Positions 1,090 through 8,802 of a DNA stretch of 17,979 bases are shown here, piece after piece (the stretch's first letter is position 1; each line of letters starts with the position of its first letter). Origin of the DNA: a virus; the UHGV virus genome UHGV-0211073. One strand, given 5' to 3'. The notes beneath the pieces are model-generated. The model was not told the origin of the DNA and searched no databases. It saw only the letters and a program-made list of their open reading frames with translations. The position numbers were made by a program, and so were the translations under genes.

Positions 1090-3441
1090 ATGCGAAACAT
1101 TGATCTTATCCGTCAGGTTATCAGTGCGTCTGAAAACAACTGGCCTCATGTGCTGGGCTGCCTGAACATAAATGTCCCTGACTCTCCGCGCCGTCATGCT
1201 CCCTGCCCTGCATGTGGGGGCAAAGACCGATTCCGGTTCGATGACAACGGGCGCGGTAGCTTCATCTGTAATCAGTGCGGCGCTGGTGATGGGCTGGATT
1301 TAATTAAACGCGTAAATAACTGCGACACAACAGAGGCGGCGCTGCTTGCCGCTGATGTTCTGGGTATTGATTACCGGACAACGGAAACACCAGAAGCCAC
1401 CAGCCAGAAACGGGAACAACTGGAAACCGAGCGCCAGCGACGCGAACAGGAGCGCCTGAAAAGGGCAGAGAAGGACGAACAACAAAGACGGGATACGTTT
1501 TCCCGTCAGTTTGATGACATGCGCAGAAAGGCTGTAAACGGCAAATCTGATTATCTGGTTGCGAAAGGGGTAGGTGATTTTACATTCCCTGTGTTGCCCG
1601 ATGGATCTCTGTTGCTGGCGCTGGTGGATAAATCCGGCGCAGTTACAGCAGCACAGACTATTACCTCACATGGTGAAAAAAGACTCCTGACAGGTTCAGC
1701 AAAGCGAGGGGCATATCACGCCATAAACGCACAGAAACGACCTCACAGCATCATAATTGCTGAGGGGGTGGCTACCGCCCTGTCGTGCCATTTAATTCGC
1801 CCTGACGCAATGACAGTGGCAGCAATCGACGCTGGCAACCTGTTGCCAGTAGCGGAAGTCATGCGCAGAACATATCCACAGGCACAAATCATCATTGCCG
1901 CAGATAACGATCACCAGCAAGGAAACTCCGAAAGTGGAGGGATCAACACGGGGAAAGATGCCGCAGAGAGGGCCGCTATTTCCGTAGCTGGCTGGGTGTC
2001 TCTGCCACCGACTGACTATAAAGCCGACTGGAACGACTATCACCAACAACACGGGCTGGCGGCAGCCACAGCAGCATTTAAAGATTCGATGTACCAGCCA
2101 CGGGGGAAAGGGGCGCAGGTGAAAAATCACAAACAGTCAGTCGGGGCGCTGAATGAGATCAGTTCTGGCGAGGTGTTAAGCGATGATGAAATTGCTGTCC
2201 TCGAAGAAATCAACCGGACGTTTACGCATGTCACCATCGGCGGGAAACACAAGGTGGTGTCGCTAAAGCCTTCTCAAACCGGCGGTGTATCGCACGTTTT
2301 CGAGGATTTATCACAATTTCAGCATTATTTTCATCATAAACCGAGAGTCGCCAGAAAGCTGGCGGGATCGGCGTGGCTGTCATGGAGTGGGAAGAACTAC
2401 AAGCCAGGAGGCGTAGGATTTTATCCAGTACCAGACAAATGCCCTGACGATGTTTTTAATCTGTATGAGGGGCTGGCACTGGAACCAATTGAAGGAGATT
2501 GCACGGTATACCTTAATCACCTGTTGCAGGTTGTCTGTGCCGGTAATGAAGAGGCATACCAATATCTTATCCAGTGGATGGCGCACATTATCCAAAAGCC
2601 TGATGAAAAACCGTCCGTGGCAATCGTGATGAAATCTGTCCCGGGCACAGGGAAAGGCACAACGGTTAAACCGCTGCTGCAAATACTGGGGCAGTACGCC
2701 GCCCACATTAACGGGGCGGGACATATTTCAGGGCGCTTCAATTCAATACTTGCTAACAAGCTACTGGTATTTGCTGACGAAGTGACGATCCACAAGCCGT
2801 CTGAAGCTGACAGACTTAAAGCGATTATTAGCGAACCGACGTTTAACCTTGAGCGCAAGGGAATTGATGCTGAACCAATGCCGAATTTTGCCCGGTTGAT
2901 ATTTGCCAGTAACAGCACACAGGTATTACAGGCAGGGATAAGAGAGCGCCGCTATCTCGTGCTTGAGCCATCTCCTGAAAAAGCACAGAGCCGGGAGTAT
3001 TTTGATCGGCTGTACAGTTGGCTTAATGATGGCGGTGCCGCAAAGTTGCTTTGGCATCTTAAAGGGGTGGATCTCTCAGGTTTTGACCCTCAACGAGCGC
3101 CACAGACCGATGCCTTACGTGAAGAAATCTTGCTGGGGCTGTCTGGCGTTGAATTGTTTCTTTATGGCGAGCTAATCAATGAACCTCCGTTTAATGGCGA
3201 AGTCCGTTTGTTTGCAAAGGATATGGTTAGTCGGTTTGTAGCGTGGTCGCTTGAGCGTGGGGAAAAGCTTAAAGAACCAGCTGCCAGATCACTACTGGGT
3301 AAATCACTTGCACAAATGGGGCTGGTGAAGCATGGAAGACCAGACCGAGGGAATGGCGTGTTCTACGAACTACCAGAGGTCGGAGTTCTACAGGCTGCGT
3401 TTGCCCGTCTGATCGGTATGGGGGGTTATGATGTTTTTTAA
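1090..3441 (+). CDS. P4 alpha-like DNA primase/helicase (zinc-ribbon + TOPRIM-like + C-terminal P-loop NTPase)
   Basis: 783 aa. N-terminal Cys cluster 'CPACGG...CNQCG' (zinc-binding). Acidic TOPRIM-like motifs 'IIIAEGVATAL' and 'IIIAADNDHQQG'. Walker A 'VPGTGKGT' and Walker B-like 'LLVFADEV' in the C-terminal half. GGGGG-type RBS before the ATG. Confidence 0.9.
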   Translation: MRNIDLIRQVISASENNWPHVLGCLNINVPDSPRRHAPCPACGGKDRFRFDDNGRGSFICNQCGAGDGLDLIKRVNNCDTTEAALLAADVLGIDYRTTETPEATSQKREQLETERQRREQERLKRAEKDEQQRRDTFSRQFDDMRRKAVNGKSDYLVAKGVGDFTFPVLPDGSLLLALVDKSGAVTAAQTITSHGEKRLLTGSAKRGAYHAINAQKRPHSIIIAEGVATALSCHLIRPDAMTVAAIDAGNLLPVAEVMRRTYPQAQIIIAADNDHQQGNSESGGINTGKDAAERAAISVAGWVSLPPTDYKADWNDYHQQHGLAAATAAFKDSMYQPRGKGAQVKNHKQSVGALNEISSGEVLSDDEIAVLEEINRTFTHVTIGGKHKVVSLKPSQTGGVSHVFEDLSQFQHYFHHKPRVARKLAGSAWLSWSGKNYKPGGVGFYPVPDKCPDDVFNLYEGLALEPIEGDCTVYLNHLLQVVCAGNEEAYQYLIQWMAHIIQKPDEKPSVAIVMKSVPGTGKGTTVKPLLQILGQYAAHINGAGHISGRFNSILANKLLVFADEVTIHKPSEADRLKAIISEPTFNLERKGIDAEPMPNFARLIFASNSTQVLQAGIRERRYLVLEPSPEKAQSREYFDRLYSWLNDGGAAKLLWHLKGVDLSGFDPQRAPQTDALREEILLGLSGVELFLYGELINEPPFNGEVRLFAKDMVSRFVAWSLERGEKLKEPAARSLLGKSLAQMGLVKHGRPDRGNGVFYELPEVGVLQAAFARLIGMGGYDVF

Positions 3442-3470
3442 TATAGTCTTTTTACAAGAAGATCGTTTTT

Positions 3471-3574
3471 ACCTGTACCACCTATACCACTTTGCTAATT
3501 CAGCATTAAAAACAATGCGTTATAGTGGTACAGGTCAATATCTTACCTATACCAGACCTGTACCACCTATACCA
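3471..3574. repeat. Iteron-like cluster 1: two perfect 19-bp direct repeats ACCTGTACCACCTATACCA (3471-3489, 3556-3574) plus an inverted core TGGTACAGGT (3526-3535)
   Basis: Read directly from the sequence. Lies in the non-coding gap just after the primase stop (3441). Confidence 0.65.
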
Positions 3575-3617
3575 TTAACAAACGCATTTCTTCTGGCTGG
3601 CTGAGAGGGAACAACCA

Positions 3618-3848
3618 ATGATGAGCACACCATTTTACAAAGTGCGCCAGTTAGCTTCTTCCTCTGGCTGGCAGCTACGGTTTGAGGGGCGTTCAGACTG
3701 GCTACCCATTGCGGCATGGGCGAATGTTGAAATGTGTATTGACGGCGATACCGTTGAAATCATTATTCCCTGCGTGGCAAGTCGGGACGGCTGTATAGAG
3801 CCAACAGATATGGCAGCAGAAATCAGAGAGGTAAAACATGAACAATAA
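3618..3848 (+). CDS. Small hypothetical protein (76 aa)
   Basis: ATG preceded by GAGAGGGAA; stop overlaps the start of the next ORF by 11 nt. Confidence 0.45.
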   Translation: MMSTPFYKVRQLASSSGWQLRFEGRSDWLPIAAWANVEMCIDGDTVEIIIPCVASRDGCIEPTDMAAEIREVKHEQ

Positions 3849-4575
3849 CTATTGCATACTGCAGGGAATGACCAGAACGGAGCGCGAAGAATTAAAAAGT
3901 TTCGCTACACAGTGCGGGAATGCTGGCGACATCCAAAGTCTGGAACGCACTTTAATTATGATTGCGCACTGGATGCGCCAGGGGCAAAGAGTTTCATTTA
4001 CTGAATATGCCAGCCAGTGGACAGAGGCACAGCGCGAACGGAGCGACGGTAATCACTCAACACCCGAAATGGCGAAGCAATGGCCTTTCAGTGGTAAACG
4101 CTGTATCAGTCCCGGTGGTTCAGATTATTACCCTGCTGGTGTGGGAGATGAGCCATGTTGTGACGAGACTGAAATCCGCCACGCAGTGACAGTAATTACC
4201 GCTGAATACCCACAATTTAACCTTGACGGACTGGCGCTCCACAACCGGAATGCGGACTGGGAAAACCCGCTTGATAACCCGTCATTTATCGTATCGGCGA
4301 AAAGCTGCCTGAGATGGATCAGAGACAACGGGATGAGTAATGCCCAGATTGAGAGCTTCCCGCAGGATAACCCCACATCTGACACGTTGAAGCATGAAGT
4401 GGAGCGATATAACCAGATAAACCACCAGCACAGTGATCACCCGCACTATATCCCCAACGGAGCATTTATTGCGGCGATGGTGGCAAGCGGCTACAAGGTT
4501 AAGCCAGCGGGAAGAATGAACGCATTTTTCAATATTTCAAAAAAGGGATTATGTGCTGCTATGGGTAAAAATTAA
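3838..4575 (+). CDS. Hypothetical protein (245 aa)
   Basis: ATG at 3838 overlapping the upstream ORF; uninterrupted ORF; no motif recognised. Bracketed by the two iteron clusters. Confidence 0.55.
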   Translation: MNNNYCILQGMTRTEREELKSFATQCGNAGDIQSLERTLIMIAHWMRQGQRVSFTEYASQWTEAQRERSDGNHSTPEMAKQWPFSGKRCISPGGSDYYPAGVGDEPCCDETEIRHAVTVITAEYPQFNLDGLALHNRNADWENPLDNPSFIVSAKSCLRWIRDNGMSNAQIESFPQDNPTSDTLKHEVERYNQINHQHSDHPHYIPNGAFIAAMVASGYKVKPAGRMNAFFNISKKGLCAAMGKN

Positions 4576-4580
4576 ATAAA

Positions 4581-4684
4581 TGGTACAGGTCTGTACAGGT
4601 GGGGAGAGGTCATTTTTACCCACCTGTACCACCTGCAGGCCGCGCCACACAAGGGTTTGTGACATGGTGGTACAGGTGGTACAG
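4581..4684. repeat. Iteron-like cluster 2: several copies of the GGTACAGGTGG / CCACCTGTACC core in both orientations
   Basis: TGGTACAGGT (4581-4590), CTGTACAGGTGG (4591-4602), CACCTGTACCACCTG (4621-4635), GGTGGTACAGGTGGTACAG (4667-4684). Same core as cluster 1. Confidence 0.6.
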
Positions 4685-5050
4685 CAAAAACAGCGATTTT
4701 CTTTATAAGGTATGTTTTGCTCATCTGGCAGACGGAGGTATTCGCTGCGGTTTGGCACATAGCCCAGAACAGCAAAGAGTTTTACGAGACTTTTGTAAAA
4801 TCCAGTGTACAAGGGCGTGACGTTTTTGAAGGTGAGCACTACGAAATTTTCGTAGTTCAAAAAATAGCCTCTGAGATGTTGTTATGCCTGTTCAGCAAAC
4901 CATCCGCATAGCTGATCGCGAATCAAATTACCAATGGAGCCAGAAGCAAGGGCAGAACTGGAAAGCGCCTGCCGTGAAGAGTAATGCGACTCCATAAATA
5001 TAGTTTTTAGAGTCCATAAAAAAACTGTCAAAACCTGACATACAGAACGA

Positions 5051-5178: not shown

Positions 5179-5352
5179 ATGGCTATTTCAGTAAAGCCAG
5201 TATTGATAAGTGAGAAGCAAATGGAAGCGATAAAGAAAATTCAGGAGGAGCAGCGTAAAAAATCAGAGGTAGGAGTTGCGCCAACGATCCACGAAATTGC
5301 TCGGGGATTAATGGATAAGGCGCTGGCTTACACTTTAACTGGACGTGGGTAA
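5179..5352 (+). CDS. Small protein (57 aa), first gene of a three-gene operon; possible DNA-binding or regulatory protein
   Basis: ATG at 5179 preceded by AAGGGGGG. Candidate -10 TATAAT at 5140-5145 in an AT-rich leader. Stop 5350-5352 lies 4 nt before the next ATG. The ORF-track start at 5050 overlaps the terminator and is rejected. Confidence 0.45.
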   Translation: MAISVKPVLISEKQMEAIKKIQEEQRKKSEVGVAPTIHEIARGLMDKALAYTLTGRG

Positions 5353-5356
5353 ATTT

Positions 5357-6700
5357 ATGGCTACGTGGCAACAGGGTATTAATTCTGGTGGTTTTCTGGC
5401 TGGCATCGGTGCGCAAAATGAGAATGCGCCAAAGGCAAGCGACATTAACGCAACGCTTGGTCTGATCCGCGAAAACAATGAACTGGCTCGCTCAGGTGCA
5501 AATAACGTTGCTCTGACAGGTCTTCGTGGTCTGGCTGGAGTTGCTGACATTTATAAGCAGCAGCAACAGCAGGAACGTAAAGCGGCATTCCAGAAAGGTT
5601 ATGCAGATGCTTATGCGTCCGGTGACAGGGAGCAGATGCGTAATCTTATTACAGCATTCCCAGAAGAGTTTGAGGAAGTCCGTAAAGGGATGAGTTATGT
5701 CGATGATGCTCAAAGGGATGATTATGGCAATCTGGCGCTCAAAGCACAGGTAGCCTCATCGCTTGGTCAGGGCGCATTTGGCAGGTTCATGATGGATAAT
5801 GAGCAGGAGATGCGTCGTTTAGGTATCCCTCCAGAAACTATTGCTGAAATGCAGGTTAATGACCCGCAGGGCTTCCAGCATTTCGCAGGTAATCTGGCGC
5901 TGTTTTCTCTCGGTCATGAGAAGTATTTCGATATCAAAGATCAAATGGAAGGTCGTCGACTTGAGCAAGGGCGACTGGATGAAAGTATGCGTCAGGCTGA
6001 CATGGAGAACGCGAGAGGATGGGCAAATATCCAGAACGCTCAACTAGACAGGGCTCAGCGAGCACAAATTCACTCAGATGAGATGGGATTGAAGCTAATG
6101 GAGCTGGGGCAAAAAGGTAAGCCGTCAGCAGACTTAATTAAGGGATTAAATTCTGACATTACCAATTTTGGCAAAAATTATAACTCTGTCAGAGCGGCGG
6201 CAAACTCTCTGCAAGCCCTTAGCAAGGTAAATACTGGCGCTGCCCAACTTGGGATTATCTTCAACTACATGAAATCTCTTGACCCGCAGTCAGTCGTTCG
6301 TGAAGGCGAACAGGTTCAGGTAATGCGGTCTGATGGCATATGGGGACAAATCAAAGGATACATAGACCAGCTTAATGCTGGAAACGGCCTGTCGCAGGAG
6401 GCAAAGGATAACATTGTTAACGCCGCAAAAATCAACGCCAATGCTATGGGGCAGCAGTTTAACCAGCAGGTTGACGAGTATCTCGATACATATGGAGAAA
6501 CTATTCCTCAGGGGCTAAGAAAAAGCCTTGAAAGAAGGAAAGCGAAGCTATTTGACGATGTTTCCGGGCAGCCTACATCACAGGCTGGCACTGGACAGGC
6601 AAAAGCGGCAACCGGAGGAATATCAGAAGGCGCAACGGCAACCAACCCTAAAACTGGTCAGAAAATCATTTACAGGAACGGAAAATGGCAGCAAATGTAA
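5357..6700 (+). CDS. Large hypothetical protein (447 aa), Q/A/G/N-rich, no catalytic motif recognised
   Basis: ATG at 5357 (MATWQQ...); long ORF; stop overlaps the start of the next gene by 16 nt. Contains a poly-Q run (QQQQQ) and no Walker A (GQKGKP does not fit), HEXXH or other signature. Confidence 0.7.
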   Translation: MATWQQGINSGGFLAGIGAQNENAPKASDINATLGLIRENNELARSGANNVALTGLRGLAGVADIYKQQQQQERKAAFQKGYADAYASGDREQMRNLITAFPEEFEEVRKGMSYVDDAQRDDYGNLALKAQVASSLGQGAFGRFMMDNEQEMRRLGIPPETIAEMQVNDPQGFQHFAGNLALFSLGHEKYFDIKDQMEGRRLEQGRLDESMRQADMENARGWANIQNAQLDRAQRAQIHSDEMGLKLMELGQKGKPSADLIKGLNSDITNFGKNYNSVRAAANSLQALSKVNTGAAQLGIIFNYMKSLDPQSVVREGEQVQVMRSDGIWGQIKGYIDQLNAGNGLSQEAKDNIVNAAKINANAMGQQFNQQVDEYLDTYGETIPQGLRKSLERRKAKLFDDVSGQPTSQAGTGQAKAATGGISEGATATNPKTGQKIIYRNGKWQQM

Positions 6701-8802
6701 TCTTACCGGAAGGTTTTGTGCTCGATGAACAACCTGATAACTCACAGTTTCCTGATAGTTCACAGCTTCCTGATGGTTTTGTGCTTGATGCCCAACCAGA
6801 ACAGCAGCAATCACCTTTGGTTTCACCAGAGGAAAATTCCAGACAGGAAAATGTTGTTAATAATGCTAACGGTTTCGACCGTTTTATGTATGGCGTTCTC
6901 AGTGGATTGATGGATGTTGGTAAAGGTGTTGGCCTGTTTCAGGATATGACACCAGAAGAGCAAGCCGCAATTCAGTCTCTACAGCAGAAGTTAGCGGCAA
7001 AACCATCAACCGCACAAGATGTTGGTGAGTTCGTTGGACAAGCAGCGCCATTTGTTAGTGGTGGTGGGATTATTTCTCAGGTTCCCAAAGGGGCGGCAAG
7101 ACTGGCTGCCGCCGTAGGGCTTGGTGCTGGAGAAGGGGCTATTGTAGCCAATGGAACAAATAGCGATGTTGCTTCCGGCGCTGCTATTGGCGCTGTGGCT
7201 GGCCCTGTAGCCGAACTTGCTGGCCCTGCAATTAATAAAATAGCTGGGAAATTAACCAAGAAGAATGTTTCTTCGATTCCAGATATTGAGGGGATTACTC
7301 CTGCCGAAGAGAAAATTCGTAAGTTATCTGCACAAGGCAACCCAAATCTTGCCTCTTCGCTTGAAGGGCTAGATCTAAAACCTCAGAAAGAAATTGTTGA
7401 GGCTGCAAATAGGCTTCATGTTGATTCAGTTCTTCCTTCTCATTTATCAGGAAATGAGCAATACCAAGCTGTAGAGCAAGCCCTAAAGTCACGGACAGGA
7501 TCAGCGTTAAAAGCTCAAGAAGATAAAGCAATAAGCGAATTAGCCTCTAGTGCTGACAAGATAATCGATGATGTTGCTGGTGCGCCAGATGCGTTAGCTA
7601 TGAGCGAAAAATATATTTATCAGATAAATAGTAGAATGGAAGCACTAAAAAACCGTAGTGATCAGTTATATAAACGTGTTGATTCCGCTCTATCACCAAG
7701 AACAAAAGTCGAAGCAAATAACACAAGCACTATGCTGGAAAAAATCGCTGATGATTTAGGAGGGTGGGATAATCTTGACCCAATAGAAAAGCGAGTTTTT
7801 ACAGCAATAAACCCCGGCCCAGATAGCATCCTAACGTATGCAAATTTAAACAGGCAAAGGCGTTTAGTTGGTGATGCCCTAAATAAAAAGCAGGGGCCAT
7901 ACAAAGATGCTGATAAAGAAGCGCTATCAAGACTATATGGAGCTTTAGCTGAAGACCAAAAATCTGTCTTATCCAATACTGGATACTTGCGAGATTTCGA
8001 AGTCGCACAACGCCTTGTAGCTATGAGAAAAAACTTAGAAAGGCAAATGGTAAATCTTCGCGGGAAAACACTTAATGGGGATATAGCGTATAAAGTAACG
8101 AATTCTCTTCAATCTATGGCAAAAGGTGATGCGAGAGGGTTTCGTGAGATTATGCAAAATACTCCATCAAGAACATTGCGAAGGGAGCTAGTAGGAACAG
8201 CATTAAGAGATATGCTTTCCTCTGGGAAGCGTGGGGCCGACTTTAATCCATCTGGCTTTGCAGATTGGTGGCAAAACTTGCAACACAGTGGACAGCTAAA
8301 GACTTTGGCTGAACATTTGCCAAAAGAAACAATGAGCGGACTATATGATGTATACAAAGTTGCCAGAGCAATAAAAAATGCTAAAGCGCATGAAATATCT
8401 ACTGGTAAGCTGAATGAGTTTGTAAACAGATTTAATCGGGTAACAGCTCCATACGAACTAGCAGCAAAACACATTCAAAAAATAGGCACGATGGTAGGCG
8501 CTCATTTTGGATCGCTTGGAGCCATTGCTGGGGCTGATATTGGAGCAAGATTGGCGAGTAAAGCTCGATTAGCTGGTGGAGCAGGGGCGGCTGATGCTGC
8601 GGATAAATTAATTGCCTCGCCAGCCTTCCAGAGCGCAGTAAAAAATCTACACGGAAAAGCGCCTGGGCACATTGTTGATTCACGTATCAGGCGCTCCCCT
8701 CAATGGAAGAGTTTTTTTAACTCTCTTCCTGAACAGGAAAAACGGACCATCGCCAGACTGGGCATCATTACTTGGCTATCTAATGATCCAGATAATGACT
8801 AG
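6685..8802 (+). CDS. Large hypothetical protein (705 aa) with N-terminal P[ED]GFVLD repeats and Gly/Ala-rich segments
   Basis: ATG at 6685 overlapping the upstream gene. N-terminus has 'LPEGFVLDEQP...LPDGFVLDAQPEQ'. Gly/Ala-rich stretches 'AAAVGLGAGEGAIVANG...AAIGAVAGPVAELAGPAINKIAG' and 'GAHFGSLGAIAGADIGARLA...AGGAGAADAADK'. No enzymatic motif seen. Confidence 0.75.
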   Translation: MAANVILPEGFVLDEQPDNSQFPDSSQLPDGFVLDAQPEQQQSPLVSPEENSRQENVVNNANGFDRFMYGVLSGLMDVGKGVGLFQDMTPEEQAAIQSLQQKLAAKPSTAQDVGEFVGQAAPFVSGGGIISQVPKGAARLAAAVGLGAGEGAIVANGTNSDVASGAAIGAVAGPVAELAGPAINKIAGKLTKKNVSSIPDIEGITPAEEKIRKLSAQGNPNLASSLEGLDLKPQKEIVEAANRLHVDSVLPSHLSGNEQYQAVEQALKSRTGSALKAQEDKAISELASSADKIIDDVAGAPDALAMSEKYIYQINSRMEALKNRSDQLYKRVDSALSPRTKVEANNTSTMLEKIADDLGGWDNLDPIEKRVFTAINPGPDSILTYANLNRQRRLVGDALNKKQGPYKDADKEALSRLYGALAEDQKSVLSNTGYLRDFEVAQRLVAMRKNLERQMVNLRGKTLNGDIAYKVTNSLQSMAKGDARGFREIMQNTPSRTLRRELVGTALRDMLSSGKRGADFNPSGFADWWQNLQHSGQLKTLAEHLPKETMSGLYDVYKVARAIKNAKAHEISTGKLNEFVNRFNRVTAPYELAAKHIQKIGTMVGAHFGSLGAIAGADIGARLASKARLAGGAGAADAADKLIASPAFQSAVKNLHGKAPGHIVDSRIRRSPQWKSFFNSLPEQEKRTIARLGIITWLSNDPDND

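Follow-up and report, generated by a model that had tools for sequence, protein, structure and literature searches.

We analysed the virus genome UHGV-0211073 (UHGV collection; 17,979 nucleotides, all of which is referred to here as the window) and found two clusters of short repeats, or iterons, downstream of its primase-helicase gene. With a probability of about 0.82, these clusters are the two modules of the vegetative replication origin belonging to a PICI (phage-inducible chromosomal island), of the type known from PICIs and from P4, which is split in the window by two open reading frames (ORF76 and ORF245). A first-pass annotation of the same DNA had already taken the clusters for the probable replication origin. 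Comparative evidence now strongly supports that reading, through the conservation of the iterons, the natural swaps of the primase C-terminal half and the match in layout to the proven origin of the island EcCICFT073.

The repeated unit is the 9-bp iteron GGTACAGGT (variant GGTATAGGT), present in 12-13 copies that all fall within 3471-3573 and 4582-4686, with none elsewhere in the window. The motif GTACAGGT gave seven exact matches against 0.19 expected, all of them inside the two clusters, and 0 of 200 shuffled sequences reached seven. The enrichment is therefore local, as the annotation had supposed. Its alternative of a repetitive extragenic palindromic (REP)-like motif spread through the host does not hold either, since the iteron motif occurs at a random rate in the host chromosome: in 116 kb of the chromosome of enterotoxigenic Escherichia coli (ETEC) H10407 outside the island, three copies of GTACAGGT were found, which is approximately the random rate, and one copy of GGTACAGGT compared with six in the clusters.

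The clusters lie where they had been placed (3471-3574 and 4581-4684), after the primase gene and around two genes: the primase stop codon is at 3441, cluster 1 begins at 3471 and both ORFs lie between the clusters. Their content had also been read correctly. The two perfect 19-bp direct repeats of cluster 1, ACCTGTACCACCTATACCA, are exact at 3471-3489 and 3556-3574, and its inverted core, GTGGTACAGGTC, is at 3525-3536; cluster 2, for which at least four copies in both orientations had been claimed, has forward units at 4582, 4592, 4602, 4669 and 4678 and a reverse unit at 4622. Cluster 1 contains a further unit, ACCTATACC at 3545, that was absent from the earlier list. The core proposed as common to both clusters, GGTACAGGTGG, has to be revised, being exact only twice and carrying one mismatch three times; GGTACAGGT or TGGTACAG is the better core. 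Within cluster 1 a 9-bp gap separates the forward unit at 3527 from the reverse unit at 3545, and in cluster 2 ATTTTTAC stands between the third forward unit (4602) and the reverse unit (4622). The AT-rich spacer of cluster 1 (Table 1) is found at the same place in EcCICFT073 and in P4 ori. A search of 3400-4900 against Rfam gave no match.

The iterons are inherited together with the C-terminal half of the primase. Scanning one genome per species with an alignment of primase relatives yielded 18 loci (individual loci are given L numbers) from Buttiauxella, Xenorhabdus, Arsenophonus, Pantoea, Methylobacter, Methylomonas, Colwellia and Sansalvadorimonas, whose primases are 43-84% identical to the window protein in the C-terminal half. 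Behind the primase gene, each of the 18 relatives has the iteron core TGGTACAG, in some of them in a variant or degenerate form; the set spans orders of Gammaproteobacteria, from Enterobacterales to Methylococcales. The most repeated 8-mer just 3' of the primase was CTGTACCA/TGGTACAG in 14 of the 18 loci; TGGTACAG is also present in L011, L017 and L018, at a lower rank or seen only on marking the sequence. One-base variants occur in the most distant locus, L022 (34% identity; TGGAACAG), and in the Arsenophonus locus L015 (TGTACAGG), and the copies in Colwellia (L023) are degenerate. When every ORF of the window was compared with the 18 loci by tblastn, only the C-terminal half of the primase was present in all. 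For each of ORF76, ORF245, AlpA, AntA, Ash and the integrase there are many iteron-bearing loci among the 18 that lack it, which excludes these proteins as the conserved reader of the motif.

In alignments of cluster 1 from four lineages and of cluster 2 from five, invariant columns made up 73% of iteron positions versus 13% of spacer positions in cluster 1 (Fisher test, p = 1e-13) and 63% versus 15% in cluster 2 (p = 1e-9), a contrast that is somewhat inflated because the iterons served as anchors of the alignments. An E. coli variant (88% primase identity), Salmonella (69%) and Buttiauxella (64%) have retained the two clusters as well as the split.

A natural series of domain swaps separates the two halves of the primase. 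The sister islands L004 and L005, which occupy the same chromosomal site, are approximately 92-97% identical to the window in shared stretches; by BLASTN, those shared with L004 stop at 1924 and restart at 4776. Between them the sister islands encode a TOPRIM-DUF927 primase that has only the N-terminal 45% in common with the window protein, at 85% identity, and the stop codon of this gene in L004 is followed by three tandem copies of GTTGGTTCA and, beyond an AT-rich spacer of 41 bp, by three more in inverted orientation, with no GGTACAGGT. Similarly, in the Klebsiella locus L035 a D5_N/DUF5906/Pox_D5 half is attached to this N-terminal domain (74% identity), and GGTAGAC/GGTAGAG iterons come next. 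Three different C-terminal halves are thus found behind a Zn-ribbon/Toprim domain that is 74-85% identical, each with its own iteron, and the DUF5906 and winged-helix form of the window goes with TGGTACAGG. Because of these swaps among three islands, it is the C-terminal half, and not the Toprim domain, with which the iteron type changes; the block exchanged with the sister islands carries the C-terminal half and both clusters jointly. On comparative grounds, this series appears to make the C-terminal half of the protein the seat of iteron specificity in primase-helicases of this kind. A candidate '125-bp conserved non-coding element' at 4776-4900, present in more than 300 other genomes, was rejected as merely the start of the block shared with the sister islands, which runs to 5327.

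The architecture of the protein is compatible with such a role. Residues 7-337, the N-terminal domain, are 33% identical to P4 alpha and the rest shows no likeness to it, so the 'alpha-type primase' of the first-pass annotation is apt for the N-terminal domain and not for the remainder, which has no D5_N or Pox_D5 match. The C-terminal 144 residues were modelled as a winged-helix fold with a predicted local distance difference test (pLDDT) score of 84.5, and the structural neighbours of the model were all winged-helix domains, including those of Cdt1, ORC/Cdc6, SarA, RFX and Fur. From this model we assign a winged helix to the C-terminus with good confidence. Across the family, a number of Arg and Gly positions of the helix and wing do not vary.

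Table 1 Features of the window, with the two iteron clusters first (a point in the strand column marks features without a strand; GC is the G+C fraction).
Feature	Position	Strand	Source
Cluster 1, two tandem iterons ACCTGTACC ACCTATACC (starts 3471, 3480)	3471-3488	-	
AT-rich spacer, 38 bp, GC 0.29 compared with 0.46 for the window; candidate melting site	3489-3526	.	
Cluster 1, lone inverted iteron GGTACAGGT	3527-3535	+	
Cluster 1, three iterons ACCTATACC, ACCTGTACC, ACCTATACC (starts 3545, 3556, 3565)	3545-3573	-	
Cluster 2, three units in the same direction, phased at 10 bp: GGTACAGGT, TGTACAGGT, degenerate GGGAGAGGT (starts 4582, 4592, 4602)	4582-4610	+	
Cluster 2, inverted iteron ACCTGTACC	4622-4630	-	
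GC-rich linker, 38 bp, GC 0.61, with GCCGCGCCA at 4639-4647	4631-4668	.	
Cluster 2, two tandem iterons GGTACAGGT GGTACAGCA (starts 4669, 4678)	4669-4686	+	
A-run and T-run CAAAAACAGCGATTTTCTTTATA, GC 0.29; conserved behind the final tandem pair of relatives and of P4 crr units	4687-4712	.	
Primase-helicase, 783 amino acids: Zn-ribbon and Toprim primase domain, DUF5906 superfamily 3 (SF3) helicase, C-terminal winged helix	1090-3441	+	Pfam, PHROG
C-terminal winged-helix domain of the primase (about residues 700-783; approximate), proposed iteron reader	3187-3438	+	
Block differing from sister islands: C-terminal two thirds of the primase, cluster 1, ORF76, ORF245, cluster 2	1925-4775	+	BLASTN vs L004
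ORF76, small protein, specific to this replicon type	3618-3848	+	Pfam, PHROG: no match
ORF245, orphan PICI protein, mostly helical, possible C-terminal winged-helix domain	3838-4575	+	
PerC	11712-11999		
Integrase	12594-13946		
AlpA-like gene	15065-15283		

The two modules occur at very different distances from each other. They are 15-30 bp apart in L019, L013 and L014, and the closest of these, L019 from Buttiauxella massiliensis (15 bp), has the window's own iterons in the same order; L020-L022 are likewise contiguous. The gap measures 0.3 kb in Xenorhabdus, with ORF76 inside, and 1.0 kb in the window, L006, L029 and L031. It reaches 4.9 kb in Xenorhabdus ehlersii (L007) and 6.8 kb in Methylobacter (L017), where the modules flank the primase gene. 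Because the modules are contiguous in many relatives and in EcCICFT073, the best reading of the window is a single origin into which 1 kb has been inserted. In the X. ehlersii locus (L007 3686-3790 and 8318-8340), cluster 1 is intact, together with the leader downstream of it, at a place 2.2 kb upstream of the primase gene, whereas the copy adjacent to the primase has decayed; this speaks for a module that can move.

Homologues of ORF76 lie between the clusters in L006, L008-L010, L012 and L016, with the same arrangement in L029, L031 and L033. By host, ORF76 is located between the modules in E. coli, Salmonella, Enterobacter, Buttiauxella and a number of loci from Xenorhabdus, and in a partial version in Pantoea. 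In L007 the homologue follows the degenerate, primase-proximal copy of cluster 1, and in the Pantoea locus L011 it follows cluster 1 with no cluster 2 present. The family is tiny, with too few homologues to model. The model of ORF245 gave weak winged-helix matches, and no function could be read from its fold; its place relative to cluster 2 varies between lineages, and its homologues also follow an unrelated origin without TGGTACAG.

Taken together, we propose that after induction the primase-helicase would bind the iterons via its C-terminal winged helix and oligomerise on the opposed iteron sets. The AT-rich spacer, and possibly also the A/T tract after 4686, would then be opened, whereupon the protein would load its own SF3 helicase ring and prime with its Toprim domain before a host polymerase takes over. 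Cluster 1 would be the core module, with the P4 ori layout, and cluster 2 an auxiliary, crr-like module able to act at a distance; each of the two may be required. In the lineage of the window, the 1-kb insert of ORF76 and ORF245 would have parted modules that are contiguous elsewhere.

Several observations weigh against this proposal. No consensus site for DnaA, IHF or Fis was found, and the DnaA box TTWTNCACA is absent from 3400-4780; these sites are not expected to matter because the initiator would be self-loading. The origin-binding domain of P4 (1KA8) matched the primase winged helix in neither sequence nor fold, and the anchoring of the alignments takes something from the conservation test described above. 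In addition, an island of Enterobacter ludwigii that appears intact (L033/L034) has cluster 1 and, within 4 kb, no cluster 2, and the Pantoea locus L011, a decayed copy, has also kept cluster 1 alone, so cluster 2 may be dispensable, auxiliary or regulatory.

These last loci are the starting point of the alternative that survives best, although we consider it unlikely: that cluster 1 alone is the origin, and that cluster 2 is mainly regulatory, with the same initiator, attached to its tandem units, controlling downstream transcription there, or copy number by titration or handcuffing. Extra iterons do control copy number in iteron plasmids. Moreover, cluster 2 is always found at the junction with variable downstream operons, which are the ejection genes in the window, SSB-PerC in L029 and L003 and SSB-ProQ in L031. 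A TATAAG lies 17-18 bp past the last tandem iterons, but it has no match to a -35 element, and a promoter and terminator scan found nothing in the clusters, cluster 2 included. The equivalent of cluster 2 adjoins cluster 1 inside an intergenic origin of approximately 230 bp in EcCICFT073, L019, L013, L014 and L020-L022, and cluster 2 is retained even where the modules are 5-7 kb apart, both of which favour a two-module origin.

It is very improbable that a two-gene cassette able to move or invert has its terminal inverted repeats or its recombination sites in the clusters. An inverted repeat (3467-3490 versus 4667-4690; 24 nt, 88% complementary) does flank both ORFs, and ORF245 does shift its position relative to cluster 2 between lineages; in L019, L013, L014 and EcCICFT073, however, the outer inverted units enclose just about 200 bp that are free of genes, so the symmetry belongs to the origin and not to a cassette. 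No recombinase is encoded between the clusters, ORF245 homologues occur elsewhere without these repeats, and the cluster region is present once per genome. We give equally little credence to the iterons being operators of another DNA-binding protein of the island (ORF245, AlpA or PerC) in place of the primase: the clusters flank the ORF245 operon and ORF245 has its weak winged-helix matches, but PerC homologues, like those of ORF245, ORF76, the AlpA-like protein, AntA and Ash, are absent from many iteron-bearing loci, and the unrelated origin that ORF245 homologues adjoin has no TGGTACAG.

Copies of the motifs outside the islands were also recorded. Lone copies of cluster 2 are found in large conjugative plasmids, at 6001-6129 of L002 (Salmonella IncFIB) and approximately 6370-6500 of L003 (Klebsiella variicola), where they adjoin insertion sequence (IS) elements or precede SSB-PerC genes. 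We considered these matches as plasmid origins and rejected this in favour of remnants of related islands beside IS elements. A scan of viral_contigs with GGTACAGNTGGTACAG returned at least 120 matches, none encoding the C-terminal half of the primase; this is the chance level for a collection of that size and is uninformative. A GC-rich element, GCCGCGCCA or a sequence close to it, stands before the final tandem pair of the window (4639-4647), of L024 (7188-7196) and of L019, L014, L006 and L035. It recurs in the origins of unrelated initiators with different iterons and could reflect a common descent of the origin scaffold, or be a site for priming or for a shared host factor.

Gene content and order identify the element itself as an EcCIMP1-like PICI satellite from E. 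coli, in circularly permuted form. The segment 3300-4900 is 100% identical to the chromosome of ETEC H10407 and of many other E. coli, and the whole of this module is present in approximately 130 of 5426 complete genomes, with a median of one copy per genome. The H10407 island, which has paoD/yagU as neighbours, reads integrase, AlpA-like helix-turn-helix protein, AntA, DUF4222, Ash, small ORFs and primase, followed by two hypotheticals, P22-like ejection proteins and PerC; all of these genes are in the window, circularly permuted. The last 400 and first 400 bases of the window (the 17979/1 junction) adjoin in H10407 with 800 of 800 positions identical, and the permutation suggests a circular contig (an excised or packaged form) or a tandem array. 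Pfam and PHROG searches of the window ORFs identified the primase-helicase (Zn-ribbon, Toprim, DUF5906), a tyrosine integrase, AlpA, Ash, PerC and a P22 injectosome translocase. The window thus has the integrase, alpA, pri-rep, one-way transcription and accessory perC of a PICI and no full set of phage structural genes. EcCIMP1 is an E. coli PICI that is mobilised by the P22-like phage Kapi1 (PMC11773190). It has the integrase, AlpA, antirepressor, Ash, primase, DNA-transfer proteins and PerC in common with the window, and its chromosomal neighbourhood (yagU) is that of the H10407 copy. A term search of the main text of the EcCIMP1 paper (PMC11773190) gave no match to 'origin of replication' or 'iteron'.

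Other parts of the island were examined in passing. Homologues of P22-type ejection and DNA-transfer proteins lie at 5345-8802 (Inj_translocase, E = 2.5e-73; phrog_770, DNA transfer protein). They come without capsid or terminase genes, in agreement with the published P22-like helper Kapi1, and suggest that the island itself provides ejection proteins to helper virions. The region 9682-15272 is unlike the H10407 island and has another integrase and other cargo, including an M78 peptidase (IrrE-like) at 10123-10611. Its 450-amino-acid integrase is 86% identical to that of the Buttiauxella island (L006) and just 28% to that of the sister islands; because integrase and cargo differ in this way, the replication and integration modules reassort independently. 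Rfam matched isrK (67.8 bits) at 17110-17187 and C4 antisense RNA (79.9 bits) at 17250-17337, both inside an 'ash family' ORF, an arrangement like that of the P1/P7-type c4-icd-ant immunity system.

A further origin-like cluster lies upstream of perC, at 11555-11675. It consists of three direct copies of GTTGGTTCA spaced at 21 bp and of three tandem inverted copies, one of them with a mismatch; the AT-rich spacer between the two sets measures 43 bp (GC 0.23). This iteron is that of the sister islands' DUF927-type primase, which the window does not encode, leaving the cluster an orphan; L004 has both copies, perC-proximal (16609-16729) and primase-adjacent (8844-8954), 7.7 kb apart and in mirror orientation. 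The orphan may be left over from the module swap, or a co-resident island's initiator may replicate the element from it or be titrated by it. We put forward as a rather doubtful generalisation that origins of the PICI/P4 class consist of two portable modules, a core laid out like P4 ori and an auxiliary one, freely spaced from 15 bp to 7 kb, the gap being a slot for cargo such as ORF76, which might regulate initiation, and that the orphan GTTGGTTCA cluster serves replication by, or titrates, the initiator of a co-resident sister satellite. If this were true, the orphan cluster would represent competition or hitch-hiking between satellites.

The biology proposed here is expected rather than surprising, the kind of origin being already known and this member of it new. 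It would nevertheless assign an origin and its cognate initiator to a widespread family of E. coli satellites, and it shows that P4 ori and PICI origins share one layout. Primase/origin pairs of this class already serve as conditional replicons for DNA delivery, among them the CFT073 primase and origin (bioRxiv 10.1101/2022.09.30.509847), and a second, orthogonal pair (GGTACAGGT with the window primase) would be of practical use.

Of the known systems, the closest is the Gram-negative PICI origin of EcCICFT073, for which replication of a rep-ori plasmid was shown to depend on both parts by deletion of the ori site or mutation of rep (PMC6092414). We fetched the sequence by coordinates from the supplement of PMC6092414 (origin, L024 7010-7240). 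The 230 bp after its primase contain two tandem copies of CTGTCTACC, an AT-rich spacer of 37 bp, one inverted unit and, 10 bp further on, three units, continuing after 25 bp with two inverted units, one unit, GAAAGCCGCGCCA and two tandem units. Order and orientation of the units equal those of window cluster 1 followed by cluster 2. Both origins follow one plan, with two tandem units before an AT-rich spacer, then one inverted unit and three units, and after these two or three units, one inverted unit, GCCGCGCCA and two tandem units. In both, the origin lies directly 3' of pri-rep (in the window, stop codon at 3441 and first iteron at 3471) and 9-bp iterons stand in opposed sets around the AT-rich spacer (3471-3488 and 3527-3535 in the window). 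The islands are also of the same type, with int, an alpA-like gene, one-way transcription and perC. Gram-negative PICI origins work only with their cognate Pri-Rep; for the window, the tracking of iteron type with the primase C-terminal half gives indirect support to such a dependence. EcCICFT073 differs in its iteron (GGTAGACAG compared with GGTACAGGT), in its primase, which has other domains and no BLASTP similarity to the window protein, and in its contiguous origin, that of the window being broken by the 1-kb two-gene insert.

The first-pass annotation had also likened the pair of clusters to ori and crr of P4, and comparison with the annotated P4 record largely bears this out. In the alpha sense, P4 ori reads CTGTTCACC twice, a 35-bp AT-rich spacer, one inverted copy, 12 bp and three copies, which is the layout of window cluster 1 (two tandem units, a spacer of about 35 bp, one inverted unit, about 10 bp and three units). 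As in P4, the iterons form two modules, which may be separated by kilobases, those of L007 and L017 flanking the primase as ori and crr flank alpha; one module is right after the primase gene, whose N-terminal domain is the part related to alpha, and each crr unit ends in a tandem pair and then an A-run/T-run, like window cluster 2. The likeness does not extend to crr as a whole, which P4 requires in cis and which is a pair of 120-bp direct repeats, whereas window cluster 2 is a single unit of approximately 105 bp without long duplication. In P4, furthermore, the module beside alpha is crr and not ori, the type I iteron is TGTTCACC in place of GGTACAGGT, and alpha has D5_N and Pox_D5 domains that have no Pfam match in the window primase. 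Since the window lacks sid, psu and delta genes, its element is not a P4-like satellite. The analogy with P4 is thus structurally sound, but membership of the P4 family fails, given an alpha-like N-terminus only, another iteron, no crr repeats and an element of PICI type.

More distantly, the window recalls the iteron plasmids of the theta type (pSC101, RK2, P1 and F), in which repeated initiator sites stand beside an AT-rich tract and extra iteron sets may control copy number. The iterons of these oriV regions are approximately 17-22 bp long, direct and accompanied by DnaA boxes, whereas the units in the window are 9 bp, lie in both orientations and have no DnaA box; similarly, plasmid Rep recruits DnaB, whereas the initiator proposed for the window would itself be a primase-helicase.

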